The notes: generated from the letters alone by a model not told the origin. Numbered from the stretch's first letter, positions 30,491 through 63,920 are shown. The stretch: 64,000 bases of DNA from Puniceicoccaceae bacterium (GCA_028285755.1 JANQOQ010000008.1:897399-961398); one strand, 5' to 3'. A program made the numbers and translations.

Positions 30491-30503
30491 TTCCTGTAGG
30501 TGC

Positions 30504-31250: not shown

Positions 31251-31263
31251 TCACCTAATTGAT

Positions 31264-32046: not shown

Positions 32047-32070
32047 ACGGAATATTTAAAAGCTGATTTA

Positions 32071-32946: not shown

Positions 32947-32967
32947 TCCAATCCGTATTAGTACATC

Positions 32968-33624
32968 ATGAAACAAGCATTTACCCAACGTTCCCGTTCA
33001 AGCGACATTTTATGGCTCTACGCCATTGTTGTGGGCTGCGTGTTTGCAGTCAGTTCCGTGAAAGCAGAATCCCTTTGGTTGCGCGGCGGGACTGAAAGGA
33101 GTATGTTTTCATCTAAGATCGCATATGGGGTGGGTGATATTCTTACTGTATCCATCAGTGAAACGGTTGACTTTAACTCGACCCAATCATTCGACAGCGG
33201 TCGTAAAAGCTCACCTCTAATCAGTATCGGCGGCGTGCTACTGGACTCTATTGATTGGGAAGAGCTTGAAGGAAAGGATATAAAACTATCTGATATTTTG
33301 GGCGGTCAGTATTCTACCAGCCCGAGTTCAGTCACCAATACAACGAATGTCGCGCAGGCGCAGATACCGGTAACAGTGATCGATGTTCTGCCCAATCATA
33401 ATCTGGTCGTAGAGGGCACACGCCTGGTCACTTTCACCGGTGAAAGACGCTACGCGGTATTTCAGGGCATAGTCCGCCCGCTGGATATAGATGTGACTAC
33501 AAACACGGTCGTCTCCAACCGCGTTGCAGACGCACGTATCGAATTTATCTCTGAAGGTGCCATTGGCGACGTTCAGGAAAAAGGCTGGTTCACCCGCTTT
33601 GTAGACGGGATCAATCCATTTTAA
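32968..33624 (+). CDS. flgH: flagellar L-ring protein FlgH
   Basis: 218 aa with ESLW...MFSSKIAYGVGDILTVSISE and VVEGTRLVTFTGERRYAVFQGIVRPLDI. Confidence 0.92.
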   Translation: MKQAFTQRSRSSDILWLYAIVVGCVFAVSSVKAESLWLRGGTERSMFSSKIAYGVGDILTVSISETVDFNSTQSFDSGRKSSPLISIGGVLLDSIDWEELEGKDIKLSDILGGQYSTSPSSVTNTTNVAQAQIPVTVIDVLPNHNLVVEGTRLVTFTGERRYAVFQGIVRPLDIDVTTNTVVSNRVADARIEFISEGAIGDVQEKGWFTRFVDGINPF

Positions 33625-33626
33625 GC

Positions 33627-34730
33627 ATGTATCGCATACTACTCACAGTTTTTAGCATTTTATTGGGCGCGAGTGTTTGCTCACTGCAGGCATCACGCAT
33701 CAAGGACCTCACGCACGTGGAGGGCGCCCGCTCGAATCAACTAATCGGCTATGGTATTGTAGTAGGACTTGCGGGTGATGGGGACAGCCAATTGTCCTAC
33801 ACGGTCCAAAGTGTATCTAATTTCTTAAAGCGCTTTGGCGTGGTGGTCGATCCTGAGACCATCCAGGGTGACAATCTTGCAGCCGTCATGATCACTGCAG
33901 AGATCGGAGCATTTGCGCGTCCGGGATCACGCATCGACGTGACCGTATCCTCTATCGGGGATGCTGAGTCCCTTAACGGGGGTGTCTTATTGCAAACGCC
34001 ACTGGTTGGTGCCGATGACGTGGTATACGCGGTTGCCCAGGGACAGGTAGCGGTCGGTGGATTTTTGGAAGGAGTTGGTGGACCGGGAGGGGCTACTGTG
34101 CAAAAGAATCACCCAACCGTGGGGATTATTTCGAATGGAGCGATTGTGGAGCGCCGCATTGCAGCTCATGTTGTTCAGCAGAACCGAATTAACCTGCTAT
34201 TGCATCATCCCGACTTTACGACCGCAGCCCGTGTCTCCCACGCCATCAATGAAATTTTCCCGGGAATCAGCCGTGCCATCGACAGTGCTTCAGTATCCGT
34301 CAATGTCCCGCCTAATTTCCGTGGGCAGGAAACCAATTTTATCGCCGCAATCGGAAACCTCGTTGCAGATCCCGATAGTGCCGCAAAAGTGGTCGTCAAT
34401 GAGCGTACCGGTACCATTGTTGCTACTGCTGATGTGCGTGTGTCGCGTGTGGCGATCAGTCACGGTTCGATCACGATTACCATTGCCTCCGATGTGGATG
34501 CCGTCCAGCCGTTACCCTTTTCGGATGGAGGCTTCACCGCCATTTTACCTGATACCAACGTGGAAGTGACCGAGATCCAGGGTGGATTTGAAATCCTGGA
34601 TCAATACCCAACCATTGAGCAACTTACCAACGCGCTCAATGCGTTGGGCGTCACTACCCGCGAGATGATGTCGATTTTTCAAACCCTTAAACAAGCCGGC
34701 GCACTGCAGGCAGAACTCGTCATCCAATAA
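33627..34730 (+). CDS. flgI: flagellar P-ring protein FlgI
   Basis: 367 aa with a signal peptide, then RIKDLTHVEGARSNQLIGYGIVVGLAGDGD and a C-terminal ALGVTTREMMSIFQTLKQAGALQAELV. Confidence 0.95.
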   Translation: MYRILLTVFSILLGASVCSLQASRIKDLTHVEGARSNQLIGYGIVVGLAGDGDSQLSYTVQSVSNFLKRFGVVVDPETIQGDNLAAVMITAEIGAFARPGSRIDVTVSSIGDAESLNGGVLLQTPLVGADDVVYAVAQGQVAVGGFLEGVGGPGGATVQKNHPTVGIISNGAIVERRIAAHVVQQNRINLLLHHPDFTTAARVSHAINEIFPGISRAIDSASVSVNVPPNFRGQETNFIAAIGNLVADPDSAAKVVVNERTGTIVATADVRVSRVAISHGSITITIASDVDAVQPLPFSDGGFTAILPDTNVEVTEIQGGFEILDQYPTIEQLTNALNALGVTTREMMSIFQTLKQAGALQAELVIQ

Positions 34731-34732
34731 CC

Positions 34733-35056
34733 ATGGAAACGACAGCAGCAGCGCATACACCGGTAATGATGAACCTCAGCGATTGGCAGGGGCTCCAGGG
34801 TATGAAACACCTTTCCGAAGAGCAGAAGCTCAAGGTAACGGCCGATGAATTTGAGGCCACCTTACTGAGGCAGTATCTCAACGATGCGATGAAACCCATG
34901 TTTAAGGGTATCATCAATGAGGAGGGTGTTGCCAATGATATATACAGAAGTTACTTCACCGATGCAATTGCTCAAAACTTGTCTCAGGGGACAGGGGTTG
35001 GCATCTCCAACGCATTACAGTCGCAGCTTTCAAAAGCAGTAAAGGAAACGTCATAA
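34733..35056 (+). CDS. flgJ: rod-binding protein (FlgJ N-terminal domain only)
   Basis: 107 aa with ADEFEATLLRQYLNDAMKPMF...IYRSYFTDAIAQNLSQGTGVGISNALQSQL, which corresponds to a rod-binding domain. No muramidase domain is present. Confidence 0.75.
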   Translation: METTAAAHTPVMMNLSDWQGLQGMKHLSEEQKLKVTADEFEATLLRQYLNDAMKPMFKGIINEEGVANDIYRSYFTDAIAQNLSQGTGVGISNALQSQLSKAVKETS

Positions 35057-35073
35057 AAAATAATTTGGAACAC

Positions 35074-35586
35074 ATGAGCATACCCACCAACGCACCCATT
35101 TGGGAACCCATTGTAGAAGCACTCCGCGCGGAGCTGCAGGAATACGGTGAGCTTCTCATACTCATCGAAAAACAACAGACCGCCATTCAAAAAAGGAATA
35201 TGCCTGGCTATATAGACCTGAGTACCGAAATTGAATCTCAGGCGGCATCTACGTCGGGCTTGCGCGCTGAACGTGAACAGAAAGTCAGGACCCTGGCAGA
35301 GTCGTTGAATATCGAGTATAATGAAAACCTCAGTGAGATGATCCCCGGATTCCCGGAGGAATCCCGCCCGATGTTCTCAGCACTCGTGGATGAGATCAAC
35401 AAACTCATCCATAAAACCCAGCGTAAGGCTAAGCAAAACCATATGCTGTTGGTACGCACACTGCATTTTACAAACGAGCTGCTTCAGAAAGTAAGCCCTC
35501 AATCTTTTACTCAGACTTACAGCCCGGCCGGTAATTCCAGCTTTCGTGCCAATCGGGACAGTGGCGCTGTAAACACCTCCGCATAA
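35074..35586 (+). CDS. flgN: FlgN-like flagellar export chaperone
   Basis: Helical protein LRAELQEYGELLILIEKQQTAIQKRN... located directly upstream of flgK-flgL, as flgN usually is. The ORF track starts at TTG 35065. Confidence 0.6.
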   Translation: MSIPTNAPIWEPIVEALRAELQEYGELLILIEKQQTAIQKRNMPGYIDLSTEIESQAASTSGLRAEREQKVRTLAESLNIEYNENLSEMIPGFPEESRPMFSALVDEINKLIHKTQRKAKQNHMLLVRTLHFTNELLQKVSPQSFTQTYSPAGNSSFRANRDSGAVNTSA

Positions 35587-35607
35587 TTCTTTTCCTTATC
35601 ATTTCCC

Positions 35608-37188
35608 ATGTCAGGACTCATCGGCAGTATTTTAAACACCACCGCATCCCTTAAGAGTAATCAAAAGGCGATTGAGGTGGCGGGTAAAAATATGGCTAAC
35701 GTGAATAATGCCAATTATTCGCGGCAAAGGCTGGAGTTTGGAATCTCAGGGGGTATTTCGGTAAGCACCATTACTCAGATTCGGGATAACCTGTTGGATG
35801 AAAAACTCATTCGCGAAGGATCCGTCTCTGGTAATCTAACCGCTCAAAACGAAGTCTATAAGCAGATCCAGGTAATTTTGGGAGAGCAGATCACAGCTGA
35901 TGTCAGCAGCCCGGATACACTTCAGGGTTCATCCTCTGGAGATCAGTCAGGGTCAGGTCTCAGCTACGCGCTCGATAACTTCTTTAACTCCCTGCAGGCA
36001 CTTTCTGTAGATCCTACGGATGCCGGGGCCAAGGCATCAGTGATCGCGAATGCAGAGGTGCTGGTAGAACGTTTTAACTCGATTTCAAATGATCTCACCG
36101 AGCTAGATAATGACGTGCTCGATAATGTTGAGACGGAGGTACGCAATGTAAATAACCTGCTTGGTGAGATTGCGGATATTAATGCAGAGATTGCCAAGAT
36201 TGAGCTTCGGGATCCGGGCGGTGCCTTTGAATATCGTGATCTGCGCCAGCAAAAACTGGAAGAGCTATCTACTTTAATCGATTTTGAAACCGTGAATGCT
36301 GACAACGGCCAGGTAATCCTGGTCGCTCCGGATAAGGCGGGAAATTCCATCGTATTGCTGGATCGGGGCGTGGTACGCAATGAGATCAAGTTCAATGAAG
36401 CCTCCAACGAGATCTACTTCAGCGATCATACCAGCTTGCCGCTTGGGAGTTCGCCCAATGCTGATGCATACGATTTAGGAGGAGGTAAAATCGGGGGCTA
36501 TCTCTATGCACGCTCTACGACAGATCCTTTCGGAGGTGCATCTTCCTATGCAGTGGGGCCCTTGGCAAAAGCACGCGAGGATCTCGATCAGCTGGCAGTG
36601 CGGGTGGCGACTGAGGTAAGCGCCATCTACGATCGCACGGATTATGGTGCGAGTCCACAGGTACTGGAACTTTTTTTTGACGATGATGCAGTGCCTGACC
36701 CCATTGATCTCTCAAATGTAACTGCAGCTAACATACGGCTCTATCAGGGAGATCTGACCACGCGCTACGGGGACGGTCCCGCATTCACTGATTTAGGTGC
36801 AGGGAGTGGCACCGTTAAGCAACCGCTCAATGTCAACACCCTGAAGTCCACTAATACCACCAACAGTGGCTCCAATGAAATTGCACTCGCTCTTGCAGAG
36901 CTGAATTCGCAAACCTACAGTGACCTTCAGGGCAGCACCTTTACGGGTTTCGTTGCAGATATGGCATCCGATATCGGGTATGCGGTCAGCAGCAATCAAC
37001 AATTAATTGAAAACCAGCAACTCATCCTGGCACAGCTAAAAGACGAGCGTGCATCCGTCAGCGGCGTATCCATTGATGAGGAGTTGGCCAACATCGTACG
37101 ATATCAGCGTTCATTCGAAGCCTCAGCCCGGGTTTTGCAGGTGATGGATGAGCTGCTGGAACTTATAACCACCCAACTGGTCCGCTAA
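35608..37188 (+). CDS. flgK: flagellar hook-associated protein 1 FlgK
   Basis: 526 aa with N-terminal LKSNQKAIEVAGKNMANVNNANYSRQR and C-terminal SGVSIDEELANIVRYQRSFEASARVLQVMDELL. Confidence 0.93.
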   Translation: MSGLIGSILNTTASLKSNQKAIEVAGKNMANVNNANYSRQRLEFGISGGISVSTITQIRDNLLDEKLIREGSVSGNLTAQNEVYKQIQVILGEQITADVSSPDTLQGSSSGDQSGSGLSYALDNFFNSLQALSVDPTDAGAKASVIANAEVLVERFNSISNDLTELDNDVLDNVETEVRNVNNLLGEIADINAEIAKIELRDPGGAFEYRDLRQQKLEELSTLIDFETVNADNGQVILVAPDKAGNSIVLLDRGVVRNEIKFNEASNEIYFSDHTSLPLGSSPNADAYDLGGGKIGGYLYARSTTDPFGGASSYAVGPLAKAREDLDQLAVRVATEVSAIYDRTDYGASPQVLELFFDDDAVPDPIDLSNVTAANIRLYQGDLTTRYGDGPAFTDLGAGSGTVKQPLNVNTLKSTNTTNSGSNEIALALAELNSQTYSDLQGSTFTGFVADMASDIGYAVSSNQQLIENQQLILAQLKDERASVSGVSIDEELANIVRYQRSFEASARVLQVMDELLELITTQLVR

Positions 37189-37206
37189 TGGTAGGAGGAT
37201 AGACAT

Positions 37207-38151
37207 ATGGCTGAATTACGCGTAAGCACCAATTCCCTGCAGGAAAACCTTATCCGACAGCTCAATATTAACCAAAGTAATCTCGTAACCCTGCAAAAGC
37301 AGCTCGCAACGGGGAGAAAGGTTACTTTGCCCGAGGATGATCCCATTTCTATGAGTCGCGCCTTAAGTCGCGAATCACAGAAGCGGGAAATTTCGCAGTA
37401 TCATACCAACAACATCATCGCAGGTAATTTGATCAATACCTCGCAATTGCACATTGATGAGCTCAAAAATCTTGGGGAGCTCGCTTTGGGCATTGCAAAT
37501 GCCACAGGCGTATCATCGAGCGATACGGAGATCGATGCCAATCGCCGTCAGTTGAATGAAATCGTCAACCAGGCCCTTGATATTGCCAATGCCAAACTCG
37601 ATGGGGAATACCTGTTTGCCGGAGTGGATTTCTCGTCAAATCCTTACTCCATTGACGATGGCGGCACCCCTACGGATGAATCGGATGATACGATCGCCTA
37701 TAACGGCAGCCCAACGGATCGCAGTGACCCCAATTTTGATGAAGCCGAGTATTATGTCGGCAAAAACACGAAAATTGCCCCTAAGCTCAATCCTGAGCAC
37801 AATGTGGATGTTCAGAACTACATCCAGGCGATCCTTGACTTGCGAAACAGCTTTGACAGTACGGCTGGGTTTGACGCATCAACCGTCGCTTCCGCATCAG
37901 CCAACCTGGAATCTGCCGAAGACCAGCTGCTCATCGCATCGACTGATCTGGCAACCAAGAGCCTGAGATTGGATATCGCGGCGCAGTCGGACTCACAACT
38001 TTTTAATCAATTGGACGAAGCGATCGCTCTGGAGGTTGGGGCGGACATTACGGATGTTGCCGTTCGCATCAATCAGGCGCAGACTTCCTATGAGGCAGCC
38101 CTGGCAAGCGCGAGCCGTATTTTGAATATTTCGCTCCTAAACTACATCTAA
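37207..38151 (+). CDS. flgL: flagellar hook-associated protein 3 FlgL
   Basis: 314 aa with a flagellin-like N-terminus RVSTNSLQENLIRQLNINQSNLVTLQKQLATGRKV...DDPISMSRAL and a C-terminal helical segment. Confidence 0.85.
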   Translation: MAELRVSTNSLQENLIRQLNINQSNLVTLQKQLATGRKVTLPEDDPISMSRALSRESQKREISQYHTNNIIAGNLINTSQLHIDELKNLGELALGIANATGVSSSDTEIDANRRQLNEIVNQALDIANAKLDGEYLFAGVDFSSNPYSIDDGGTPTDESDDTIAYNGSPTDRSDPNFDEAEYYVGKNTKIAPKLNPEHNVDVQNYIQAILDLRNSFDSTAGFDASTVASASANLESAEDQLLIASTDLATKSLRLDIAAQSDSQLFNQLDEAIALEVGADITDVAVRINQAQTSYEAALASASRILNISLLNYI

Positions 38152-38167
38152 TAAACCAAAGCCAATC

Positions 38168-38917
38168 ATGACTTTAGAAAATATCGAAGCACTCAAAGCT
38201 ACAGCCAACGACGGTGACGTTGAGGCACAGCACAAACTTGGATTCATATATGCCACGGGTGAAAGCGTCGAACTGGATAACCAGGAGGCGATCCATTGGT
38301 TTACAATGGCTGCTGAGCAGGGTCATCTGGATGCACAGTGTAACTTGGGTTACCTTTATTTCTCCGATAAAGAAGTTGGGGATTTGGAGGCGGCGCATAA
38401 ATGGTTTAGCATAAGTGCGGAAGCCGGACACCCGGCATCTCAGCTAAATATGGGTATCATTTATGCCAATGGACCAGCCAAGGACATAGACCGTGCGATG
38501 CACTGGTATCAGCTCGCTGCAAGTAACGGCGAAGTGCAGGCAGCCTATAACCTTGGTCTGCTTTATTTTGAAGGCACCGATGTTGCGCAGGATAATGTCA
38601 AGGCATTTGCCTACTTTGCACAAGCGGCTGAGGTGGGTTATGAAGAAGCTGAATACAGCCTGGCATATTGTTTTTCAAAAGGAATCGGTACTGAGCGCGA
38701 TCGTGAACAGGCTGTCCGCTATTATACCAAAGCAGCTCACAAAGGCCATGCGAGTGCTCAGTTTAATCTTGGCCTTCATCACGAGTATGGTGAAGGGGGG
38801 CTTGAGCAAGACCACGAAGAGGCGATTTATTGGTACCAAAAAGCAGCTAATCAGGGCCATGCTGCCGCTTCTGAGGCGATTGAGTTGCTAGAGCAATCTA
38901 CCCAGCAAAAAGTGTAA
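38168..38917 (+). CDS. Sel1-like repeat (SLR) protein, no signal peptide
   Basis: 249 aa with about six repeats of the A.-W+.KAA.QG...AQ..LG..Y..G pattern (for example AIHWFTMAAEQGHLDAQCNLGYLY and AIYWYQKAANQGHAAA). It starts 16 nt after the flgL stop. Confidence 0.85.
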   Translation: MTLENIEALKATANDGDVEAQHKLGFIYATGESVELDNQEAIHWFTMAAEQGHLDAQCNLGYLYFSDKEVGDLEAAHKWFSISAEAGHPASQLNMGIIYANGPAKDIDRAMHWYQLAASNGEVQAAYNLGLLYFEGTDVAQDNVKAFAYFAQAAEVGYEEAEYSLAYCFSKGIGTERDREQAVRYYTKAAHKGHASAQFNLGLHHEYGEGGLEQDHEEAIYWYQKAANQGHAAASEAIELLEQSTQQKV

Positions 38918-52210: not shown

Positions 52211-53854
52211 CTAGCTGGCAATTTTAAATCGGTTCACTGAGCTGATGAGATTTTGGCTGATACCACTCAACTCCTGGGCATTTTCGTGATCGTCCGATGC
52301 CGCTTTTCTGGTGTGGGTTGCGTCTACTTTAAATTGGTTGATGTGCTCTGATATCGAGCGGCTTGCATTTGCATTCTCAGTAATATACTCAGAGATTTTC
52401 TCAATCTGGGAGTTCAGGTTTTGAGTAATCTTAGAGACTTCATTCGAGGTAATGGACTGCTCTTCAACGGCTGCTGATATCGACTGGGCGATGGTGTTTA
52501 CTTCCTCTATAAGATGGGTGATCGACTCGATCGACTCAATGGCTCCATTTGTCGTGTTTTGAATATTCTCGACCTGCAGGGCAATCTGTTCGGTTGCAGT
52601 ACTGGTTTGTTTTGCCAGTTCTTTAACTTCGTTGGCAACCACGGCAAACCCCTTGCCGGCTTCACCGGCACTTGCGGCTTCAATGGTCGCATTGAGTGCG
52701 AGTAAGTTAGTTTGACCGGCAATTTGGTTGATCAGGTCTATGATTTTCCCGATTTCATTAGCAGCATTCCCCAGATTTTGAACGGTTTTACTGGTTTGCT
52801 TGGCTTCTTCGCTGGCTGTCGTGGTCATTTCTGCTTCCTTGATGCAGTTTACGGCTACTTCGTGGATGGAATTACTCATCTGACTGACCGATTCGGTCAC
52901 TGATACAGCCGAAGCTCTCATCGCTTCCGACTCGCTATTTAATTCTTCGGAAACTTGATAGAGTTTTTCACAGTCATCGGATGCGGCGGTTGCCTTGTTA
53001 CTGATCTCATTTGCGGAGCTATCCAGTTGCTGAGAACTATCTATCAGGTGGCTGGCATTTGTATTCAGCGAAAAGGATTGGTTTTTAATGTTGCCGATGA
53101 TAGTTCGAAAATTATCTGCCATCAAATTAATAGCATCTGCCAACTGGGCATATTCATCTCTTTGCTTAATCTCTATGTTAGCGGATAAGTCATGATTGGC
53201 CATGCTTTCCAAACCCGATATTGTTTTTTTAAGCGGGCTCATGATCCGTCTCATAACGAATTGGTTAACGACCATGATACCGATAAATGCGAGAAGCAAA
53301 ATGACAGATTGGATCTCAAATATCAAAGTACCGGTTTCTGAGATATTATCCAATCTACTTTTTGAGTAGGTTTCCCAGGATTTTACTGCAATATTCATTG
53401 CCGCCAGTAACTCCCCGTTATGGGCGACAATGTAGTCCAATGCCTCAAAAGTAGCCGGATCTTCGAGTGAATTATTAATCAGAATATCTATGGAGGCTCT
53501 GAATGGCTCCCAGAGTTTTACCACCTGATTAAGGTTTTGTTTAATTTCATCGTTGGGTGCTGCCGTTATATGTTGAGCTTCATTACCCTGGATGAGCATT
53601 TGCAACGCGCCATCAAACTCATCCCTGGATACTTTGAGTAGTTGGGCTTTTGATTCATCGAGTGTGCTGAAGTACTCGAGCGCCTCCTTTGACATTCTTT
53701 GGCTAAGCATTCGTTGCTTGCCGGCTAAATTAATGGCTACTCCATCATTACTGATGTTTTCCAATTTAGGAGCGGCAAAATTGATTACAAAAATAATACT
53801 AAATGCCACTGCAATCAGTAGTGTGTTGATAATAAGTATAGAACGGATCTTCAT
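52211..53854 (-). CDS. methyl-accepting chemotaxis protein with PilJ/NarX-type sensor
   Basis: 547 aa with TM1, a periplasmic helical sensor containing [19 protein letters not shown]2, HAMP, and the signalling hairpin [37 protein letters not shown]. Confidence 0.92.
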
Positions 53855-53969: not shown

Positions 53970-54638
53970 CTAGTACATGGGCTTCTTTACGATTTCACCG
54001 GGAGCTATGTATCCACGAGCGAAAAGGGTAGGTAGAACGGCAGCCCCCTTACCCAGCAGTGTGCCGGGATTCATAACTGCATTGCAGCCAATCTCAACGT
54101 TTTCACCTATGATTGCACCTAACTTACGCAACTCGGTTTGATGGATGCCATTAGGTAATCGCAGACGTACGTTTTTCCGGTCCTGGCGCACATTCGCAAG
54201 GATTACCCCGGCACCGAGATGGACCTTGGTTCCCAATATCGAGTCACCCACATAGTTGAAGTGGGCGGTCTCCACTTTGTCCATGAGGAGCGAGTTTTTA
54301 TACTCACAGGAGTTGCCGAGTACGCACCTGCTACCGGCAATTACATTTCCCCGGATATAGACCCCAGGCCTCAGCTCGCAATCGGGACCGATAAAGGCAG
54401 GCCCCTCGATGTAGCCGTACGGGGGCAGGCTGACGCCCGGACCGATGTAGATCTGGCCTTTGATTGTTAAACCGGGAGGAATCTCAGCAGGTGGTTGAGC
54501 TTCTGTCCGATCAGTAAAATAAGCCTTCAGGGCCTCTTTGATCTGAGGGATCCAACTCCAGGGGGAGGCCTCCGGATCAAAGTAGTCTGAGAAAGTATTG
54601 AGACTATCGGGTAATTCAAAAAAATCCTTGGCTTTCAT
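53970..54638 (-). CDS. left-handed beta-helix (hexapeptide-repeat) protein, GlmU-C-terminal-like acyl/nucleotidyl-transferase fold
   Basis: 222 aa with imperfect hexapeptide repeats (IGPGVSL, IEGPAFIGPDCEL, IRGNVIAGSRCVLGNSCEY, VGDSILGTKVHLGAGVIL, IGENVEIGCNAVM). ATGA start/stop overlap with the upstream transglutaminase gene (54635-54638). Confidence 0.65.
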   Translation of the reverse strand: MKAKDFFELPDSLNTFSDYFDPEASPWSWIPQIKEALKAYFTDRTEAQPPAEIPPGLTIKGQIYIGPGVSLPPYGYIEGPAFIGPDCELRPGVYIRGNVIAGSRCVLGNSCEYKNSLLMDKVETAHFNYVGDSILGTKVHLGAGVILANVRQDRKNVRLRLPNGIHQTELRKLGAIIGENVEIGCNAVMNPGTLLGKGAAVLPTLFARGYIAPGEIVKKPMY

Positions 54639-55555
54639 TGGCTTTGTTGTTGGTTGTTCACGGGCTTAATCGGATCTACGCTGACTTCCACTAAAAGTTG
54701 GCTGGGTCCCCCTCCAGTGATAGCACCCTTTACCATGCTCACGTCATTAAAATCTCTCCCCGCCGCTACACGTATGTGCTGGTTGGATACAACCAGGTTG
54801 TTTGTGGGGTCAACATCGATCCAACCATAGCCCGGTATAAAGACAGCCACCCATGCGTGGGATGCATCCGATCCCGCGAGCCGGGATTGGCCTTCGGGTG
54901 TCAGGGTTAAGAGATAACCGCTGACATAACGTGCGGGGAGGTTCATGTTGCGGATTGCCGCTATCATCAAGTGTGCAAAATCCTGGCAAACACCACGTTT
55001 CAACTTCAGAACGTCGCTGACGGGTGTTGCGATATCGGTGGCTTTCGGGTCAAATTCAAACTCCTTGTATATGTATTCATTCAGTTCGAGGACACTTTGC
55101 AAAAATGACTTAGAATCTTCAAAGAAGGGTTGCGCAAATGATTCGATTTCTTCGGATTCGGGAACTAGTGATGAAGGATAAATATACTGGAGCGCATCGA
55201 GTATACTGCGATTGCGGATGCCATGCAGCGATTTTTTCACTTGCAGGCAGGTTGTAGTAAGCTCATCCGCCGGAGGGGTGCTATCATAAACGGTGGCCTT
55301 AAATTCATTAACGACTTCAAAGACTTCATGGAATTCCTGGATTGAGAAGAAGCCTACACGATTGCCAAAAAAGTCCTTTCGCTCGGTATAATCCAGTGGG
55401 TTTGGAGTGATACTGATACGGTAGTCTTCAATCTCCTGATATCTTTGCGTATTAGGCGGGCGCAAACATACCGAATGGTAGGACTGTGAGACCGGAAAGG
55501 TGTAGTCATACCGCGTGCGGTGCGTAAGTTGGTAGTGATGGGGGATTGAGCTCAT
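54635..55555 (-). CDS. transglutaminase-like cysteine protease family protein (Bact_transglu_N + core)
   Basis: 306 aa with N-terminal YQLTHRTRYDYTFPVSQSYHSVCLRP and a Cys/His/Asp triad context: RGVCQDFAHL, SHAWVAVFIPGYGWIDVDPTN. Confidence 0.85.
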   Translation of the reverse strand: MSSIPHHYQLTHRTRYDYTFPVSQSYHSVCLRPPNTQRYQEIEDYRISITPNPLDYTERKDFFGNRVGFFSIQEFHEVFEVVNEFKATVYDSTPPADELTTTCLQVKKSLHGIRNRSILDALQYIYPSSLVPESEEIESFAQPFFEDSKSFLQSVLELNEYIYKEFEFDPKATDIATPVSDVLKLKRGVCQDFAHLMIAAIRNMNLPARYVSGYLLTLTPEGQSRLAGSDASHAWVAVFIPGYGWIDVDPTNNLVVSNQHIRVAAGRDFNDVSMVKGAITGGGPSQLLVEVSVDPIKPVNNQQQSQ

Positions 55556-58056
55556 CCTTTCTTAACGTGGGCGAAAAACTGTTGTTCGATAGACTTTGAG
55601 AGGGCTTCAAGCTCATCCATTTGGCGTTCCAGGAAACTCACGAGGCTGTCTTTTTCTATCAACTCCCCATCCTTGAATAAGGTGTTGGGTTCGATGAAAG
55701 CAAAATCGTTGCTGAGTCTGTTGTAACTGATGAGTACTTCACTCAGCAGGTCGGCTTTCGGATCAATACCCGGTAGAGCAATGATGTGTTCGCCAATTTT
55801 ATCGATGTTAAACTGGATGCTGCGGGGGTTCATGCCATCCTTCATGAGCAGATCTATGATCGCAAGCGGATGAAAACTATTCAGATAACGATTCTTGTAG
55901 CTAATGGTACTATCGGAATACTCGAGTAGATAGAGTATTGTGTTTTCATTATAAATATCACCGATCTTCAGGCATTCACTCAGGAAACTGTTTAAATTGA
56001 AAGTACGCTCGATGCGCCTGCCAAGCATTAGAAAGTGCCAGCTTGGGCTACGCACCATATTCTCAGCCGTCATCCCATAGAAGGCCGCCAGCCAATCGAG
56101 GGCATCTTCAAGGGCTTCAATATTGCGCTCATGGATGAGAGTGCTTTGCCCGGGATCATGAATGATTTCGGTATTCTCCATGTAGCTGAGTATCTGGGCC
56201 GTATCTACTGACAAGCGTTCCTTTACGCTATTGGCTATGCGGTGGATATGATTGAATCCGGCCTTGAGGCTGTTCCAGCAATCCGGATCCCACACATATT
56301 GGCGGAGCATATCATCCAATGTATCCAGTAATTTGGCAGGATCCTGGATTTTGTAAATCTCTTCATATTCCTCTTCAGTAACCAGCAGGGAAATGAATGG
56401 GGCCAGAGAATGAACGGTTTCCAATTCGAACTGTTGAGTGATTTTGGAGAGGATAATGCGCAATTGACGGGCGAGGGACTCCACGCGCTCTACATAGCGA
56501 CCCAACCATAGCATGTTATTGGCAGTTCGGCTGGATAGGTCAATCTGTGGAGGTTTCAGCTTAATGCTACCATGCAGGGTAGCGGACTGTGCACCCCGCT
56601 TTTTCTGGCCTGTTTCATCCAGTATCCAGATGTCCTTACTCAGTCCTCCATGCTGCATGGACACATTCATCGATTCCGGTGAGGGGGCAATCCGCGCCAA
56701 CCCTCCGGGTAATAACTTGTAGCTGCCGTTGGTTCGTGCCAGGTATACTCTGACCAGAAAGTGATGGGAGTGTATTCCCGAATCGCTGTATACGGGTGCA
56801 GTCGCCTTGGATACGACTTCCTGTGCGCAAAAGCTTTCCGGCCGCTTTTGAATTTGCTGCACCAGCTGGTCAGTTTCATCCTTGCTCAGAGTAGGTCCAA
56901 ATATGGCGGGTGTAATCTTTTCGCGGAAGGTACGTTTAATGACCAACTTATTGATATTCTCAATGACGTATTTGAGCTCCCTGGGTTGACCGCACCACCA
57001 GGTGGCAACCGATGGAATCTTGAGACCTTCGCCTCGGAAATATTCGCACAGACTGTTTAGGAATGCAGGGAATGCCACTGTTTCCATCAATGCAGAGCCG
57101 GGCATATTGGATACACTGATGGTCTTTTGGCGGAGTGCATTGATAAGGCCGGGGGTGCCAAGCATTGATTCATTGCGCAACTCAAGGGGGTCACACCACT
57201 CACTATCAACCCGGCGTAGTAATACGCTCAAGGGTTTAATACCCGTTAGGGTTTTTAAATAAACGGTATTATCTCTCACGGTAAGATCCGCGCCCTCGAT
57301 CAATGGAATACCGAGATTTCTGGCAAGGAAGGACTGGTCATGATAGGTTTCATTTGCCGTACCGGGCGTCAGGAGTGCCAGACTCAGTGTTTCACTGTCG
57401 GGGGGTGCTAGTCCCTTCAGCGAATTGATGTAAGTATCGTAAAATGGGCGAAGCGAGCTTACACGATCATCCCGAAAGAATTCCGGCATCACTCGTGAGG
57501 AAAGCGAGCGGTTTTCCATCACATAGCCCAAGCCGGAGGGGGCTTCGATACGGTCACTCAGTATCCACCATTTGCCATCCGGCGATCTCGCAATATCCGC
57601 CGCATATAGATGGATGGAAGTTTCACTGTGTTCGATACTTGCGCAAGGTCTCAAAAATGCGGGATTGGCATAAACCAGGTAAGGGGGGAGTTGACCCTCG
57701 TGGATGAGCTCCTGTCTCCCATAAAGGTCCTGATAGATCTGATTCATCAGTTCTGCGCGCTGCTGCAGTCCCTGTTCAAGGTTTATCCAATCACTTTTAC
57801 TGAAGATCAGGGGCAATAAATCCATGATCCACCGCCGTGTTTCTCCCTGATCTGAGTAGACATTATAGGTGATACCATTGTCAGCGATGATCTTGTCCAG
57901 CAGCTGTTTGCGCTGCACAAGCGCATCCGGGGAAATCTGCTCAATGCGGTTTGCAAAGTAGGACCAATTGTCGCGTACGTTACCCTGAGTATCGACAAGC
58001 TCGTCATAATCACCTCCCGAGGGTGTGTAGCCATAGAGTATCGATTGCTCAGTCAT
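55552..58056 (-). CDS. fusion of circularly permuted ATP-grasp domain and alpha-E domain
   Basis: 834 aa. The N-half is paralogous to the 479-aa ORF at 62419 (GKWWILSDRIEAPSGLGYVMENR; LLTPG...FLARNLGIPLIEGADL; LLRRVD). The C-half opens with RTANNMLWLGRYVERVESLARQ, like the alpha-E ORF at 61403. Confidence 0.85.
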   Translation of the reverse strand: MTEQSILYGYTPSGGDYDELVDTQGNVRDNWSYFANRIEQISPDALVQRKQLLDKIIADNGITYNVYSDQGETRRWIMDLLPLIFSKSDWINLEQGLQQRAELMNQIYQDLYGRQELIHEGQLPPYLVYANPAFLRPCASIEHSETSIHLYAADIARSPDGKWWILSDRIEAPSGLGYVMENRSLSSRVMPEFFRDDRVSSLRPFYDTYINSLKGLAPPDSETLSLALLTPGTANETYHDQSFLARNLGIPLIEGADLTVRDNTVYLKTLTGIKPLSVLLRRVDSEWCDPLELRNESMLGTPGLINALRQKTISVSNMPGSALMETVAFPAFLNSLCEYFRGEGLKIPSVATWWCGQPRELKYVIENINKLVIKRTFREKITPAIFGPTLSKDETDQLVQQIQKRPESFCAQEVVSKATAPVYSDSGIHSHHFLVRVYLARTNGSYKLLPGGLARIAPSPESMNVSMQHGGLSKDIWILDETGQKKRGAQSATLHGSIKLKPPQIDLSSRTANNMLWLGRYVERVESLARQLRIILSKITQQFELETVHSLAPFISLLVTEEEYEEIYKIQDPAKLLDTLDDMLRQYVWDPDCWNSLKAGFNHIHRIANSVKERLSVDTAQILSYMENTEIIHDPGQSTLIHERNIEALEDALDWLAAFYGMTAENMVRSPSWHFLMLGRRIERTFNLNSFLSECLKIGDIYNENTILYLLEYSDSTISYKNRYLNSFHPLAIIDLLMKDGMNPRSIQFNIDKIGEHIIALPGIDPKADLLSEVLISYNRLSNDFAFIEPNTLFKDGELIEKDSLVSFLERQMDELEALSKSIEQQFFAHVKKG

Positions 58057-58082
58057 AAAGCAAAACCATACGACGACTTACT

Positions 58083-61000
58083 TTACTTAATCGAGGAGAA
58101 TCTTCTTAAATCCAGTGTATTTGGAAAATCGATGGACTCCTTTTCCCGTGGTGCCTGAGTGTAGCCACCGGGGGTATGCCCCCGAGCCTCAAAGCGACTC
58201 AGCCGACGGCTTTCCGCTTCATAGGCGTTCACGGGGAAAACCTCATAAGCCTTACCGCCAGGGTGGGCTACATGGTAGCGGCAACCGGCGACCGGGCGCA
58301 TATTCCACGTGTCCAGTAGGTCGATGGTAAGGGGCGCATCAACGGGGATCGTGGGGTGCAACGCAGAGGCGGGTTGCCAGGCGCGGAACCTTACGGCTGC
58401 GACGTATTCCCCCTGCTTGCCGGTGTTCTTCATGGGGATTTTGCAGCCGTTGCAGCAAAGTATGTAGCGATTGCTGTTAAAGTTCTTGGCTTTCACTTGG
58501 ATGCGTTCGAGGGAAGAATCCACGAAGCGCACGGCTCCACCGGTGCTACCTTCTTCACCCATTACGTGCCAGGGTTCCAGCGCCTGGCGAATGTCCACTT
58601 CAATATCCTTATATTGAAACGTACCATAATAGGGAAAGCGAAACTCAAGGTGGGATTTAAACCAATCTCGCTCCACTGGTATGCCAAACGAATTCAGGTC
58701 ATCCAGCACTTCCATGAAATCCTCCCATATATAGTGAGGCAGTAGCATGCGGTCGTGAAGATCAGTGCCCCAGCGCATCAGCCGGAGCGGTGTGTAGGGC
58801 TCTATCCAGAATCGGGTGACTAAAGCACGGATTACCAAATTCTGAGCGAGACTCATGCGCGCATTGGGTGGCATTTCAAAAGAGCGGAATTCAACGAGCC
58901 CCAGTCGCCCATTCGCCGCTTCCGGGTTATACAGCTTGTCGATGCAGATTTCAGCACGGTGGGTATTGCCGGTTATATCCACCAGGAGATTCCGGAAAAT
59001 ACGATCCACGAGCCATGGCGGACAAGGCGTGGGTGTATTTTTTACCTCTTCAAAGGCGATTTCCATCTCATAGAGTGCATCATCGCGGGCTTCATCCAGG
59101 CGAGGGCTCTGGCTGGTTGGGCCTATAAACAATGATGAAAATAGATACGAAAGCGAAGGGTGGTGATGCCAATATGCGACCATACTTTGCAGCAGATCCG
59201 GGCGCCTTAAGAAGGGAGAATCCTCGGGTGTTTTTCCACCCAGGATGATGTGGTTGCCCCCACCTGTGCCCGTGTGGCGTCCATCGAGCATAAATTTATT
59301 GGTGCCCAACCGGCACAGGCGCGCATCTTCGTAGATACTGGATACAATGTAAGTGAGCTCCTTCCAGCTTTCAGCGGGTTGGATATTTACTTCAATAACT
59401 CCCGGGTCGGGCGTCACGCTGAACATATTGATGCGCGAATCCTTAGGTGGCTTTTCCCCCTCGATTACCACGGGGTAGTCTAGTGCACCGGCAGTCGCTT
59501 CGATTGCCGAAAGCAGCTCCAGATAATCTTCGAGACTACTAACCGGAGGAAAGAATATAAACAGCTTACCGTCCCGGGGTTCTATACAGAGTGCGGTGCG
59601 GGCCGTTACATTAGGATTGTCCGGCTGTCTGGGCTCATCTGCTTCCTTACTTTCGAGGCTTTCTTCGGCGAGTTTACGAAACTGTCTGACCTTTTCAACA
59701 GTATCAAACAGTGGGTTTTGTTGTACGATACTGGGGTCCTGTTGAACGATGTAAGGATAGTCATTCTGGCGAATCCAGGGGAGGGTTTCCAGTGGCAGTC
59801 TCAGGCCAATAGGGGAGTCGCCGGGAGTCAGATAAAGATTGGGCTGGCGGATATCCCAGGGTGTGCTGGTCCAGATGTGTTTTGCCTGCCAGAGTTTCTG
59901 CAGGGGCAATACCCAACCTTTGGGCACATCAAGCCCTTCCTCAAAAAGCTTCGCAAGTCGCTCCCGTTCCTCGCTTTGCCTGAGTTTGTTATCGATCGGG
60001 TCGACGTTCACCGGCAGCTTTCGCTCTTTCCAGAGGTAATACCATGTATCCTCATAGGCGGGCATCAAAGTATCGACGCGCACTTTGAGGGTCTTTGCGA
60101 GCGTCTGGGCAAACTTTTTAGCTTCATCGGGACCGAAGCCATAATCTTTATCAATTTCAGCTAGCAGGCGTTTATTATTCCATAGCGGCTTACCGTCTTT
60201 GCGCCAATAACAGGAGAACGCCCAACGCGGCAGGGGTTCACCCGGATACCATTTGCCCTGCCCATAATGCAGAAACCCCTTGGGAGCAAAACGCACCCAC
60301 ATTTTTTTAAGCAGTTGCTCGGAAAGCGCCTTTTTCTGGGGGCCCACTGCCTCAGTATTCCACTCGGGTCCGTCCATGTTATCGATGGATATAAAGGTGG
60401 GCTCACCACCCATGGTCAGGCGAATATCATGCTCTTCTATAAGCTTATCAACCTGATCTCCGGTTTTCAGTAGCCGCTCCCAGGCATCATCCGAGTAAGG
60501 CTTTGAGATGCGCGGCACTTCAGCAATCCGGCTGATGGACATGTCGAAGTTAAACGCCGTTTCGACTTTCTCCAATGCGCCGGATATGGGTGATGCAAAT
60601 TTTGGCTCGGGGGCGCAGGCCACCGGAATATGCCCTTCCCCCGCAAGCAGGCCGGAGGTGGGGTCGAGCCCAATCCACCCGGCACCCGGTAGGTAGACTT
60701 CTACCCAGGCATGCAGGTCAGTAAAATCAGCTTCCGGTCCGGAAGGTCCATCCAGAGACTTTTCATCGGGTGTTAGTTGGAGGAGATAGCCGGATACAAA
60801 ACGGGCCGCAAATTTGAAATGCCGTAGTATATGAATGAGCAACCATGCCGTATCCCGGCATGAGCCGGTTCTTTTCTTTAGCGTCAGGCTGGGAGTCTGA
60901 ATGCCCGGCTCCATGCGAATCGTGTAGCCGATATCGTTTTGGAGTTTTGCATTCAGCGATACCAGAAAATCGATGGTTTTCTCCTTGTCCGTGTCAATCT

Positions 61001-61400
61001 CCGTTATGTATTCGTTGAGTAGCTCGGAATACAGGGGTGTTTTGAGGTAGGACTCCAGCTCCTTCTCCATGGAAGCTTCGAGCTTTCGTTCGTGGTATTC
61101 CTCGTAGTCCGGCTCCAGAAAGAAATCGAACGGATTGTATACGGACATTTCTGCCACCAAATCCACCTCGATCTTAAACTCCTTAATGCGCTCCGGGAAA
61201 ACGATGCGCGCTAGGTAGTTCGAGTAGGGGTCCTGCTGCCAGTTAACGAAATGATCCTTGGGGCTGACTTTGAGCGAATAGCTTAGAATTGGTGTGCGAC
61301 AGTGTGGAGCGGGTCGCAGACGGATAGTCTGAGGGCCTAACTTTGCAGGCTTCTCATACACATAGTGGGTGAGGTGGTGGATGGCAGCGTGGATAGCCAT
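58083..61400 (-). CDS. large transglutaminase-family protein (Bact_transglu_N + transglutaminase core + DUF2126-type C-terminal region)
   Basis: 1105 aa with N-terminal AIHHLTHYVYEKPAKLGPQTIRLRP and a core triad context RTGSCRDTAWL, LHAWVEVYLPGAGWIGLDPTSG. A conserved extension of about 800 aa follows. The DUF2126 assignment is from memory and needs an HMM check. Confidence 0.8.
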   Translation of the reverse strand: MAIHAAIHHLTHYVYEKPAKLGPQTIRLRPAPHCRTPILSYSLKVSPKDHFVNWQQDPYSNYLARIVFPERIKEFKIEVDLVAEMSVYNPFDFFLEPDYEEYHERKLEASMEKELESYLKTPLYSELLNEYITEIDTDKEKTIDFLVSLNAKLQNDIGYTIRMEPGIQTPSLTLKKRTGSCRDTAWLLIHILRHFKFAARFVSGYLLQLTPDEKSLDGPSGPEADFTDLHAWVEVYLPGAGWIGLDPTSGLLAGEGHIPVACAPEPKFASPISGALEKVETAFNFDMSISRIAEVPRISKPYSDDAWERLLKTGDQVDKLIEEHDIRLTMGGEPTFISIDNMDGPEWNTEAVGPQKKALSEQLLKKMWVRFAPKGFLHYGQGKWYPGEPLPRWAFSCYWRKDGKPLWNNKRLLAEIDKDYGFGPDEAKKFAQTLAKTLKVRVDTLMPAYEDTWYYLWKERKLPVNVDPIDNKLRQSEERERLAKLFEEGLDVPKGWVLPLQKLWQAKHIWTSTPWDIRQPNLYLTPGDSPIGLRLPLETLPWIRQNDYPYIVQQDPSIVQQNPLFDTVEKVRQFRKLAEESLESKEADEPRQPDNPNVTARTALCIEPRDGKLFIFFPPVSSLEDYLELLSAIEATAGALDYPVVIEGEKPPKDSRINMFSVTPDPGVIEVNIQPAESWKELTYIVSSIYEDARLCRLGTNKFMLDGRHTGTGGGNHIILGGKTPEDSPFLRRPDLLQSMVAYWHHHPSLSYLFSSLFIGPTSQSPRLDEARDDALYEMEIAFEEVKNTPTPCPPWLVDRIFRNLLVDITGNTHRAEICIDKLYNPEAANGRLGLVEFRSFEMPPNARMSLAQNLVIRALVTRFWIEPYTPLRLMRWGTDLHDRMLLPHYIWEDFMEVLDDLNSFGIPVERDWFKSHLEFRFPYYGTFQYKDIEVDIRQALEPWHVMGEEGSTGGAVRFVDSSLERIQVKAKNFNSNRYILCCNGCKIPMKNTGKQGEYVAAVRFRAWQPASALHPTIPVDAPLTIDLLDTWNMRPVAGCRYHVAHPGGKAYEVFPVNAYEAESRRLSRFEARGHTPGGYTQAPREKESIDFPNTLDLRRFSSIK

Positions 61401-61402
61401 GT

Positions 61403-62404
61403 CTAAATCGTTGTTTGCTTTTGCTCCTGGGCAGGATCAATGATCGGAAAGAACATATACGCGTTATTCAGTTCGATCGCGATTTTAGTAATAGTTCTGT
61501 GGATATGATCGAGTAGATCATCCAGGCCGCGTTCAAATATTTCGTTGACTGAGGAATAAGTGAGATCAGCAATCAGCTTTCCGCAAAGTCTCTCGGCTTC
61601 GTTGGAGTAATGCGTGGTCGGGCAATCGGAAATTGCGTGTATGTGAAATTGGAGTTTCGTTGCCGAAAAAAGGATCGAGCGCGGGAATTCCCGCGAGAGT
61701 ACCAAAAATTCGATAACGTTCTTTGGGATAATATCGGTTACGTAGATTTGCTGATAGACTTCCTCAGCACTGCATGCACGCAGGACCGACACCCATTGGG
61801 CGATTGCGAGAGGGTTGGTTTCATCCTTTTCTGCCCATTCTGCGTCCATCAGCTGCTTGGCCTTTAGGATTTGTCCGGTTTTATCTGCACGTTCGAGGAA
61901 CATTCCAGCCTTGATAAAGTCAAACCCATCTCCATGCAGGAAAGTGGAATCAGTTACGCCCTGAAAGAGGTTCGAATACTCCCGGATTTCTTTGTAAAAA
62001 TCATGAGGTCCGCTTTTCCAAATCTTTTTATGATCCGCCCGCTTTAAGTTAAGGTAGAGGCGATTGATGATTTCCCACATGTCCTCCGATATCTGATCAC
62101 GAATCATGCGCGCATTTTCGCGTGCGAATTTGATACAGGAGAGTACCGAGCTCGGGTTTTTGTCCGAGAAAGTGAGGAAATCCATTGCGGTCTCACTATT
62201 CAGCTCGTCGTAATTTTCTTTAAATAAGCCAAGGTCACCCGTGCTTGCGATGATCGGTTTCCAGAAGCTTTCGATGCTACTGGTAGAGGTTCGATCGGTT
62301 TCCAAGAGTATTTGCAGGTTAACATCCAAGAGCCGTACGGCGCTTTCTGCGCGCTCGATATAGCGGCTCATCCAAAAAAGTGAATCTGCAACGCGACACA
62401 ACAT
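61403..62404 (-). CDS. alpha-E domain protein
   Basis: 333 aa, all-helical, opening MLCRVADSLFWMSRYIERAESAVRLLDV. It follows the ATP-grasp gene after a 14-nt gap. Confidence 0.8.
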   Translation of the reverse strand: MLCRVADSLFWMSRYIERAESAVRLLDVNLQILLETDRTSTSSIESFWKPIIASTGDLGLFKENYDELNSETAMDFLTFSDKNPSSVLSCIKFARENARMIRDQISEDMWEIINRLYLNLKRADHKKIWKSGPHDFYKEIREYSNLFQGVTDSTFLHGDGFDFIKAGMFLERADKTGQILKAKQLMDAEWAEKDETNPLAIAQWVSVLRACSAEEVYQQIYVTDIIPKNVIEFLVLSREFPRSILFSATKLQFHIHAISDCPTTHYSNEAERLCGKLIADLTYSSVNEIFERGLDDLLDHIHRTITKIAIELNNAYMFFPIIDPAQEQKQTTI

Positions 62405-62418
62405 GGCTCAGTGTTTTA

Positions 62419-63858
62419 TCAGGTATCTCCGTAGAGCACCCAGGTGTCCTTACTGCCACCTCCTTGAGATGAATTCACGACAAGCGAACCTTTTTTAAGC
62501 GCCACTCGTGTGAGTCCCCCCGGCATAATCGATACCTTTTCGCCATAGAGAATATAGGGGCGAAAATCAATGTGGCGCCCCTCAAAACCCTTATCACACC
62601 AGGTAGGATGTCTGGACAATGAGATTGGGGTTTGTGCAATGTAATTACGCGGATCTTTTTGAACCGCCTCCTTAAATTGGGCGATTTCCTTTTTGCTGGC
62701 GTGGGGGCCAATCAAAATCCCGTAACCCCCGGATTCATTGGCAGCCTTGATGACCAGCTTGTTCATGTTCTCGAGGATAAATTCCAGATTATTGCCCTCG
62801 GTTGGCAGCCAGGTCTCCACGTTGGATAGAATAGGATCCTGATCCAGATAGTACTTAATGATCCGTGGAACAAATGCATAGATCACCTTATCGTCCGCAA
62901 CGCCGGTACCTATTGAGTTTGCCAGCCCCAGGTTCCCCTTGCGATAGGCTTCGACCAATCCGGGCACACCCAGCACGGAATCTTTGCGGAATACCTTGGG
63001 GTCGAGAAAATCGTCATCTACGCGCCGGTAGAGCACATCCACGGGTTTGAGCCCCCGGGTGGTACGCATGTATACTTTATCATGCCGTACAACAAGATCA
63101 CGCCCCTCCACGATATCCACACCCATCTGTCGCGCAAGGAAGCAGTGCTCGAAGTAAGCGCTATTGTAAACACCTGGGGTTAATACGGCAATCACAGGCC
63201 CATTATGATTTTCCGGAGCAATATGTTGGAGCACTTTCAGAAGGTGTTTTGAATAATCCAGATTTGTGCGTACTCCCGCTTGTTGAAAAAAGTTGGGAAA
63301 TGCTCGCTTAAGGGCCTCCCGGTTTTCGAGCATATAGGATACTCCCGAGGGCGACCGTGCATTATCCTCAAGCACCAAATATTCGCCCTGGTCGTTGCGA
63401 ATCAAATCCGTGCCGCAGATGTGGATGTAGATATCCTTGGGTACATTGACACCCCTGAACTCAGGCCGGTAGTGTTTCGCACTTTCGATAAAGTGGGCCG
63501 GTATGATTCCGTCCTTAATGATTTTCTGCTCGTGGTAGATATCCTTCAGGAAGAGATTGAGTGCAATAATCCGCTGCTCGAGGCCCTTGGATATGTGCTG
63601 CCATTCTGTGTTAGGAATGATGCGGGGCACCAGATCGAAAGGAAAAATCTTTTCGGTACCTTCCTCATCTCCGTACACGGTAAATGTGATCCCCTGCCTC
63701 AGAAATGACAGGTCAACCGCTTCTCGTTTCTGAAAAAATTCTTCAGTGCTCAGCTCGCTGAGTCTCGCATAGATATTGCGATAGTGGGGCCGAACGGTTC
63801 CATCCGCCTCAAACATTTCATCGTAAAAGGAATCCGTTTTATACGAATCAAACTTCAT
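62419..63858 (-). CDS. circularly permuted type-2 ATP-grasp protein
   Basis: 479 aa with [80 protein letters not shown] and [15 protein letters not shown]. Confidence 0.85.
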
Positions 63859-63877
63859 CGTTTATAGTTATCCGCAA

Positions 63878-63920
63878 ATTTTATGCCGTCTTGGTTATTG
63901 GTTAACATTCACTAAGTGAA
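63878..63920 (-). promoter_or_regulatory. candidate promoter/operator region of the ATP-grasp operon
   Basis: The minus strand reads TTCACTtAGTGAA (a perfect 6-1-6 palindrome, 63920-63908), then TAACCAA-TAACCAA (tandem 7-mer, 63904-63891). A possible -35 TTAACC (63905-63900) is followed by 16 nt and a -10 TAAAAT (63883-63878), about 20 nt before the ATG at 63858. Confidence 0.3.

Follow-up and report, generated by a model that had tools for sequence, protein, structure and literature searches.

A sigma-54-type promoter-like element ahead of tandem ATP-grasp, Alpha-E and transglutaminase-like cassettes in a Puniceicoccaceae genome

This work concerns six consecutive genes in a 64,000-nucleotide (nt) stretch of a Puniceicoccaceae bacterium genome (GCA_028285755.1, JANQOQ010000008.1:897399-961398), the full length of which is called the window here. 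The genes are all encoded on the minus strand and are labeled G1 to G6 in transcription order. G1 and G2 make up cassette A, and G3, G4 and G5 make up cassette B:

62419-63858, minus strand: G1, circularly permuted ATP-grasp ligase, 479 amino acids (aa) (Pfam CP_ATPgrasp_2 and CP_ATPgrasp_1)
61403-62404, minus strand: G2, Alpha-E protein, 333 aa (Pfam Alpha-E)
58083-61400, minus strand: G3, the giant, 1105 aa (Pfam Bact_transglu_N, Transglut_core and DUF2126)
55552-58056, minus strand: G4, fusion of CP_ATPgrasp (residues 82-457) and Alpha-E (residues 507-828), 834 aa
54635-55555, minus strand: G5, small transglutaminase-like protein, 306 aa (Pfam Bact_transglu_N and Transglut_core)
53970-54638, minus strand: G6, LbH acyltransferase resembling the C-terminal part of GlmU, 222 aa (Pfam Hexapep/LbH)

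From G1 to G4, the genes are separated by gaps of 14, 2 and 26 nt; G4 and G5 overlap by 4 nt, as do G5 and G6. An earlier reading made from the sequence alone (the sequence-only reading) had given the same six open reading frames (ORFs), coordinates and junction lengths, and all peptide motifs that it quoted are found in the translations. Every family that it expected for the six proteins was returned by a Pfam profile check with very strong full-length matches, whereas no NCBIfam model matches the five core proteins G1 to G5. Hydrophobic segments are found in none of the six proteins (maximum Kyte-Doolittle value over 19 residues ≤ 1.21), which are therefore predicted to be soluble and cytoplasmic. 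The cassette junctions leave no room for a small tag ORF, and intrinsic terminators and sigma-70 promoters are not more numerous within the operon than in shuffled sequence. For three of the genes, the nearest named relatives belong to the Verrucomicrobiota, mostly Opitutales and related groups.

Cassette A opens with G1, which matches the CP_ATPgrasp_2 profile over its full length (expectation value (E) 1e-161) as well as entry 3N6X of the Protein Data Bank (PDB; E 9e-166), titled only ‘putative glutathionylspermidine synthase’. Its proposed paralogy with the N-terminal half of G4 is upheld by 31% identity over 465 aa (E 1.6e-95), and 36 columns that are conserved at ≥ 95% are identical between the two ATP-grasp paralogue families. 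The Alpha-E protein G2 (Pfam E 4.6e-88) is likewise confirmed as a paralogue of the C-terminal half of G4, with 20% identity over 300 aa (E 7e-8) and a score of 38.9 bits, where none of 50 shuffles exceeds 19 bits. Residues E17, R18, R24, R95, N97, R102, D103, E171, R172, K175 and E271 of G2, including the ER motif of the family (E17/R18), are invariant in 64 homologues. The AlphaFold2 (AF2) model of G2 is all-helical, with a predicted local distance difference test (pLDDT) score of 92.3 and a predicted template modelling (pTM) score of 0.89. Foldseek found no fold relative of this model in the PDB (best E 0.19, TM score below 0.3), and sequence and profile searches of the PDB gave no match. 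A known structural relative was thus rejected, and Alpha-E stands as a family without a solved relative in the PDB. As G4 fuses ATP-grasp with Alpha-E, Rosetta-stone evidence points to an interaction between G1 and G2, and G2 is presumed to be the obligate partner of G1.

Cassette B starts with the giant G3, which combines a transglutaminase-like Cys-His-Asp domain (approximately 60576-61400) with a DUF2126 domain (approximately 58104-60572) that covers positions 1-826 of the 826 in the Pfam profile with 1286 bits. In an AF2 model of moderate quality (pLDDT 73.8), the N-terminal domain is matched by Foldseek to the transglutaminase-like cysteine protease 3ISR (E 6e-11) and also to TgpA. Homologues of the giant form at least 8000 clusters at 90% identity. 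Those among the 120 best matches, which include Verrucomicrobiota, Planctomycetaceae, Pseudomonas and Betaproteobacteria, are 57-72% identical to the window copy, and identity across phyla amounts to 57-60%. Copies in the genome collection are 53-58% identical to that of the window, and the closest metagenomic relatives 67-72%. The fusion protein G4, with a full-length CP_ATPgrasp match (Pfam E 1.6e-130), is encoded after the giant in nearly all related loci.

The small protein G5 matches 3ISR (E 5e-16) and is 29% identical to the N-terminus of G3 over 289 aa (E 3e-24). Both transglutaminases do carry the intact Cys/His/Asp triads ascribed to them: C181, H230 and D246 of G3 are invariant among 48 homologues, and C190, H233 and D249 of G5 are retained in 76-78 of 78. 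In all 11 loci with both types of small transglutaminase, G5 scores approximately 177 bits against the one after the fusion gene versus approximately 91 bits against the one beside G1-G2. Because G5 is of the type that follows the fusion gene and not of the G1-G2 type, cassette A has no small transglutaminase of its own, as had been suggested.

Gene order was compared in a census of 80 genome loci encoding the giant, selected from at least 600 matches at 53-58% identity, in which genes were ordered by tblastn. The relative arrangement of the two cassettes was counted in the 52 loci with sufficient flank. G3-G4-G5 is near-universal among census loci with enough downstream sequence. A G1-G2 pair lies within 10 kb of cassette B in 35 of the 52 loci, so that both cassettes travel together in about two-thirds of them, which fits the proposal that they serve one pathway. 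In nine loci, the pair is co-directional with the giant and abuts it directly, in the order of the window. Three further loci have a co-directional pair that comes with its own small transglutaminase, and four a co-directional pair set off by 1-1.5 kb; the pair is divergent in 16, downstream in two and complex in one. Protein searches revealed the same G1-to-G5 order in the four closest relatives (L083, L085, L086 and L091), the Alpha-E proteins of which are approximately 65% identical to that of the window (three measured); the giant of L091 is 71% identical. The cassettes are therefore tandem, A then B, rather than interleaved as the sequence-only reading had it, and the novelty that it implied for the gene order does not hold, since this order recurs widely and the layout is a frequent one. 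In two of these relatives, both metagenome-assembled, the G1 orthologue is broken into two ORFs (L085 3087-4531, L091 7424-8867), either by a frameshift, as in decay of the cassette-A ligase, or by an assembly error.

A conserved accessory partner was sought as well and rejected, as no family has more than five members in a Pfam scan of the 119 flanking ORFs of the 80 loci. Genes of the RidA/YjgF family (Ribonuc_L-PSP) are among the few recurring neighbours (5/119 flanking ORFs). In Pseudomonas putida, PP2689 (‘endoribonuclease putative’) comes directly after PP2685-2687 in a published expression table (PMC3325844).

The conserved unit comprises five genes and not six as first proposed, because the LbH gene G6 accompanies the cassette in none of the 80 loci. 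The best NCBIfam matches of G6 are the acetyltransferase halves of GlmU-type enzymes, all below cut-offs; the best of them (TIGR03992) reaches 155.6 bits where 292 would be required, and the match is confined to the C-terminal LbH half. As a stand-alone LbH protein, G6 has neither the curated score nor the nucleotidyltransferase domain of a GlmU-type enzyme. It belongs to a stand-alone family of approximately 225 aa that is widespread in Opitutae and other Verrucomicrobiota, where its members are automatically named UDP-GlcNAc diphosphorylase or NDP-sugar pyrophosphorylase. In two relatives, L088 and L090, the LbH gene is followed by an epimerase, a GT1, an SBP_bac_5, a XerC-like integrase and a YdbH-like gene, the same neighbours as at 51149-45383 of the window. 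An extracytoplasmic function (ECF) sigma factor gene, and not the cassette, lies 5' of it there, and in L088, with a contig of 525 kb, approximately 45 kb separate the LbH gene from the cassette. A metagenomic LbH relative with 61% identity adjoins rpsL and rpsG. As this LbH backbone is kept in relatives without an adjoining cassette, the cassette seems to have moved beside a pre-existing LbH gene in the lineage of the window.

G6 is probably co-transcribed with the cassette, given its 4-nt ATGA overlap with G5 on the same strand and the lack of a terminator-like site between them. The same overlap would favour a six-gene pathway, with the LbH acyltransferase acylating whatever the two cassettes produce. 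The census and the synteny of the relatives rule LbH out as a pathway member, which makes this explanation very improbable; LbH adjoins the cassette as a housekeeping-type neighbour and not as one of its conserved members. The C-terminal tail of G5 departs from those of its relatives after VEVSVDPI: its last ten or so residues, KPVNNQQQSQ (54635-54680, minus strand), have no counterpart, and the tails of the relatives are longer and mutually conserved (E-EPKRI-HS--SYS). From the sequences, this divergence would fit a breakpoint between G5 and the LbH gene, where a rearrangement produced the ATGA overlap.

With the sixth gene, its sole apparent peculiarity, being an accident of gene order, the region is an ordinary member of a known predicted system, namely COG2308/COG2307/COG1305 joined to an Rv2566-type cassette. 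The former is a peptide-ligase system reportedly predicted by Iyer, Abhiman, Burroughs and Aravind in 2009, and we take Rv2411c-Rv2409c to be its example in Mycobacterium tuberculosis. The neighbours of Rv2566 are presumably an ATP-grasp::Alpha-E fusion (Rv2567) and a small transglutaminase-like protein (Rv2569c). The window has the same three domain families, with CP_ATPgrasp, adjacent or fused Alpha-E and a neighbouring transglutaminase with an intact Cys-His-Asp triad, and G1-G2 correspond to the ligase and Alpha-E of the system. The window differs from the system in that cassette A is directly followed by cassette B and no longer has a small transglutaminase of its own. G3-G4-G5 are identical to the Rv2566-type cassette in architecture and order, with no essential difference. 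The Rv2566-type giant has been described as a transglutaminase-like domain joined to a domain of the carboxylate-amine ligase superfamily, Pfam DUF2126 (PMC2588565). The COG2308/COG2307/COG1305 prediction is quoted in PMC3495828, PMC5666114 and PMC6376114.

The first three genes of the operons that encode the proteasome homologue Anbu in Pseudomonas, Yersinia and cyanobacteria are homologous as well, and the P. putida operon is induced by nitrogen limitation (PMC3325844, PMC8050072). The window differs from these in its additional giant/fusion cassette and in the lack of an Anbu gene: no match to the Anbu/proteasome family was found in the six proteins or in the other 38 window ORFs of ≥ 200 aa. 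An Anbu-type operon was therefore rejected. An anti-phage defence system was rejected likewise, with zero matches to PADLOC models for all six proteins.

Upstream of G1 lies a candidate promoter:

63874-63887, minus strand: sigma-54-type -24/-12 promoter-like element GGCATAAAATTTGC, beginning 29 nt upstream of the G1 ATG

The GG...TGC columns of this motif are invariant in an alignment with the three closest relatives. Of 38 related loci, 20 have a relaxed form of it in the 350 nt upstream of G1, compared to approximately two expected (binomial P = 5e-16), mostly 16-56 nt before the G1 start; in the Burkholderia loci L049, L056 and L058 it lies 52-56 nt upstream. It is not enriched upstream of the stand-alone giant (7/75 loci). 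The cassette thus appears, as judged from these motifs, to be switched on from a sigma-54 promoter. The perfect 5-3-5 palindrome TTCACTTAGTGAA (63908-63920, minus strand), approximately 20 nt upstream of the motif, could be a candidate regulator-binding site and is not retained in the alignment with the three closest relatives.

A further point in favour of the element is that the organism uses sigma-54, since the window encodes an activator of the response-regulator type:

23422-24849, plus strand: sigma-54 activator (Response_reg, Sigma54_activat and HTH_8)

This activator probably regulates flagellar genes and is not likely to be NtrC. Near it lies a flagellar basal-body, hook and flagellin cluster (30486-38151, plus strand) with FlgF/G, FlgA, FlgH, FlgI, FlgK and a flagellin-like gene.

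Nitrogen regulation has been published for orthologous clusters. In Burkholderia cenocepacia H111, I35_5080-5083 (BCAM1233-1236) encode DUF404/407, DUF403, transglutaminase-like and large transglutaminase-like proteins, and they are among the most strongly NtrC-dependent genes under nitrogen limitation and sigma-54-dependent as well (PMC5491218). As far as the table in that paper goes, this cluster shares with the window G1, G2 and then the giant; unlike the window, it keeps an A-type small transglutaminase between G2 and the giant, and its regulation is experimental where that of the window is predicted. Its gene order is that of census loci L049 and L058, both of which carry the motif. Expression of the P. 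putida Anbu operon (PP2685-2688) rises strongly under nitrogen limitation (PMC3325844, PMC8050072, PMC3235984), and an RpoN motif has been reported upstream of a CP_ATPgrasp_1 gene in Bradyrhizobium. The sequence-only reading had held that no substrate, product or phenotype was known. This stands for substrate and product, whereas for phenotype it goes too far in view of the NtrC/sigma-54-dependent and nitrogen-limited expression in these papers. With regard to activity it was also too strong: an ATP-grasp homologue from Yersinia liberates phosphate from ATP (PMC6376114), and Rv2569c is an unspecific protease in vitro that is sensitive to serine- but not cysteine-protease inhibitors (PMC11081392). 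Rv2411c and Rv2567 were expressed in a 2026 study, which showed only that they do not make gamma-aminobutyric acid (GABA)-trehalose.

In all four closest relatives, the slot held by the LbH gene in the window is filled by a Mem_trans permease gene (PF03547, auxin-efflux-carrier (AEC) family) that either overlaps G5 or is at most 15 nt away:

L083, 18088-19065: Mem_trans permease
L085, 12534-13514: Mem_trans permease
L086, 17947-18924: Mem_trans permease
L091, 16867-17847: Mem_trans permease

Such a permease could export a peptide-like metabolite (a signal, chelator or osmolyte) that the three ligase domains assemble and the transglutaminase-like domains mature, and several ligase and amidase-type domains are indeed what assembly and maturation of a small non-ribosomal peptide would need. 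We consider an exported product improbable, as the window has no such permease and the 119 flanking ORFs contain no recurring transporter family (ABC_tran is found in two). Conservation across phyla and membership of a nitrogen-starvation regulon also suit core nitrogen metabolism better.

The reading that we favour, with slightly better than even confidence, is that of a five-gene, cytoplasmic, sigma-54-dependent module of two tandem paralogous cassettes that ligates and cleaves amide bonds of a small nitrogenous metabolite or short peptide. Transcription would start under nitrogen limitation from the sigma-54 promoter just 5' of G1, as the motif suggests here and experiments have shown for orthologous clusters. 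G1-G2 and G4 would then act as ATP-dependent carboxylate-amine ligases via an acyl-phosphate, as their fold and the ATP hydrolysis by one homologue suggest, with Alpha-E as an obligatory partner that binds substrate or aids catalysis. The DUF2126 domain of G3 may be a second amide ligase, similar to glutamine synthetase or gamma-glutamylcysteine ligase, to which its weak fold matches point. Finally, the two transglutaminase-like domains, with their invariant triads, could hydrolyse or transfer amide bonds of the gamma-glutamyl or isopeptide type and free a product or ammonia. The substrate would thereby be captured in the form of an amide conjugate and processed in nitrogen scavenging or recycling, and would not be a protein tag.

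We lean towards a small molecule because the closest relatives couple a permease gene to the cassette, because there is no tag gene, no protease partner in the window ORFs of ≥ 200 aa and no recurrent partner in the 119 flanking ORFs, and because the giant is so similar between phyla. Two published observations lead in the same direction: no interaction of Anbu with other proteins of its operon was detected (PMC6376114), and the cassette domains co-vary with urea-metabolism domains in marine metagenomes (PMC3597751). A conjugate of this kind has a parallel in gamma-glutamylation pathways. These pair a glutamine-synthetase-like ligase with a Cys-His amidase, as do PuuA and PuuD of Escherichia coli, and GmaS of methylotrophs belongs with them. 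The likeness is one of analogy only: an ATP-dependent amide ligase is paired with a thiol amidohydrolase on a nitrogenous substrate, whereas the amidase of the cassette has a transglutaminase/papain fold instead of that of a class-I amidotransferase, and sequence homology is not demonstrable.

Several points weigh against this module. The exact motif GGCAY-N5-TTGC is found twice in the 64 kb compared to 1.5 matches expected by chance, a number that by itself is not significant. The GC element of GGCATAAAATTTGC lies approximately 15 nt from the G1 ATG, which would make for a near-leaderless mRNA, and the element overlaps a weak sigma-70-like match. The data on nitrogen regulation are proteobacterial, whereas the nearest named relatives of the window are Verrucomicrobiota, and the Mem_trans permease of the relatives is absent from the window. 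The placement of DUF2126 in the carboxylate-amine ligase superfamily is putative and comes from published profile searches (PMC2588565). For the part of G3 beyond its transglutaminase-like domain, Foldseek gave repeated but sub-threshold matches to glutamine synthetase and GmaS (best E 0.17). A profile search of PDB sequences with G3 reached the transglutaminase domain only and no ligase, and sequence-level proof of a glutamine-synthetase-like ligase was dropped for this reason. In the literature searched, no substrate, product or phenotype is defined for any orthologue. Lastly, the published authors favour protein tagging (PMC3495828, PMC5666114, PMC6376114).

In this Iyer/Aravind model, the ligases would attach amino-acid or peptide tags to proteins as TTL and RimK do, the transglutaminase-like peptidases would remove them, and the tags would direct protein turnover in nitrogen starvation. 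Apart from the published prediction, it is supported by the many genomes in which an A-type cassette shares an operon with Anbu, by induction under nitrogen starvation, which suits protein recycling, and by the degradation of proteins by Rv2569c in vitro, although the lack of specificity and the inhibitor profile of that activity speak against it. No Anbu or proteasome-like gene is present in the window ORFs of ≥ 200 aa or in the 119 flanking ORFs of related loci. Together with the missing tag gene, the undetected Anbu interaction and the permease of the closest relatives, this makes protein tagging less likely in our view, though it is a serious rival and deserves more weight than export. Anbu itself had no known function as of 2021.

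The cassette family is very large and extends to M. tuberculosis (Rv2566, PMC2588565), and its role in amide-bond chemistry has been predicted since 2008-2009. The conserved five-gene unit is now separated from its passenger gene, and the promoter motif, tied to the cassette across very distant lineages, points to nitrogen limitation as the relevant growth condition. A wider claim, which we put forward tentatively and with some doubt, is that of a near-universal sigma-54/NtrC nitrogen-starvation machine that makes and then cleaves a novel amide-linked conjugate, be it a gamma-glutamyl or peptidyl metabolite or a protein tag, with Alpha-E as specificity or co-catalytic subunit. In that case, a promoter conserved from Proteobacteria to Verrucomicrobiota-like genomes would point to an old and so far overlooked branch of the response to nitrogen stress.

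The second exact match to the promoter motif (38573-38586, plus strand) is located inside a Sel1-repeat ORF (38168-38917), 368 nt upstream of a gene for an AI-2E-family transporter, and is probably due to chance. Elsewhere in the window, an ORF of 881 aa (10395-13040, plus strand) without a Pfam match at E ≤ 1e-5 lies downstream of ABC-2 transporter-associated genes (DUF4340, ABC_transp_aux).

The window stops 142 nt upstream of G1, short of the region that would match additional genes upstream of G1 in the closest relatives. These encode an extra Alpha-E protein of 295 aa and an Rce1-like (CPBP) intramembrane protease, beside a divergent ThiF-rhodanese gene:

L083, 4648-6224: extra Alpha-E and CPBP genes
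L086, 6626-8192: extra Alpha-E and CPBP genes
L091, 5647-7214: extra Alpha-E and CPBP genes

A dCache_3 histidine kinase gene is situated directly 5' of G1 in L083 and L084. At the other end of the region, a further gene separates the LbH and epimerase genes of the window:

52211-53854, minus strand: PilJ/HAMP/MCPsignal chemoreceptor gene

It follows the LbH gene at a distance of 115 nt in the same orientation, without a terminator-like site in the gap, and looks like a lineage-specific insertion, as the syntenic L088 and L090 have no gene at this position.

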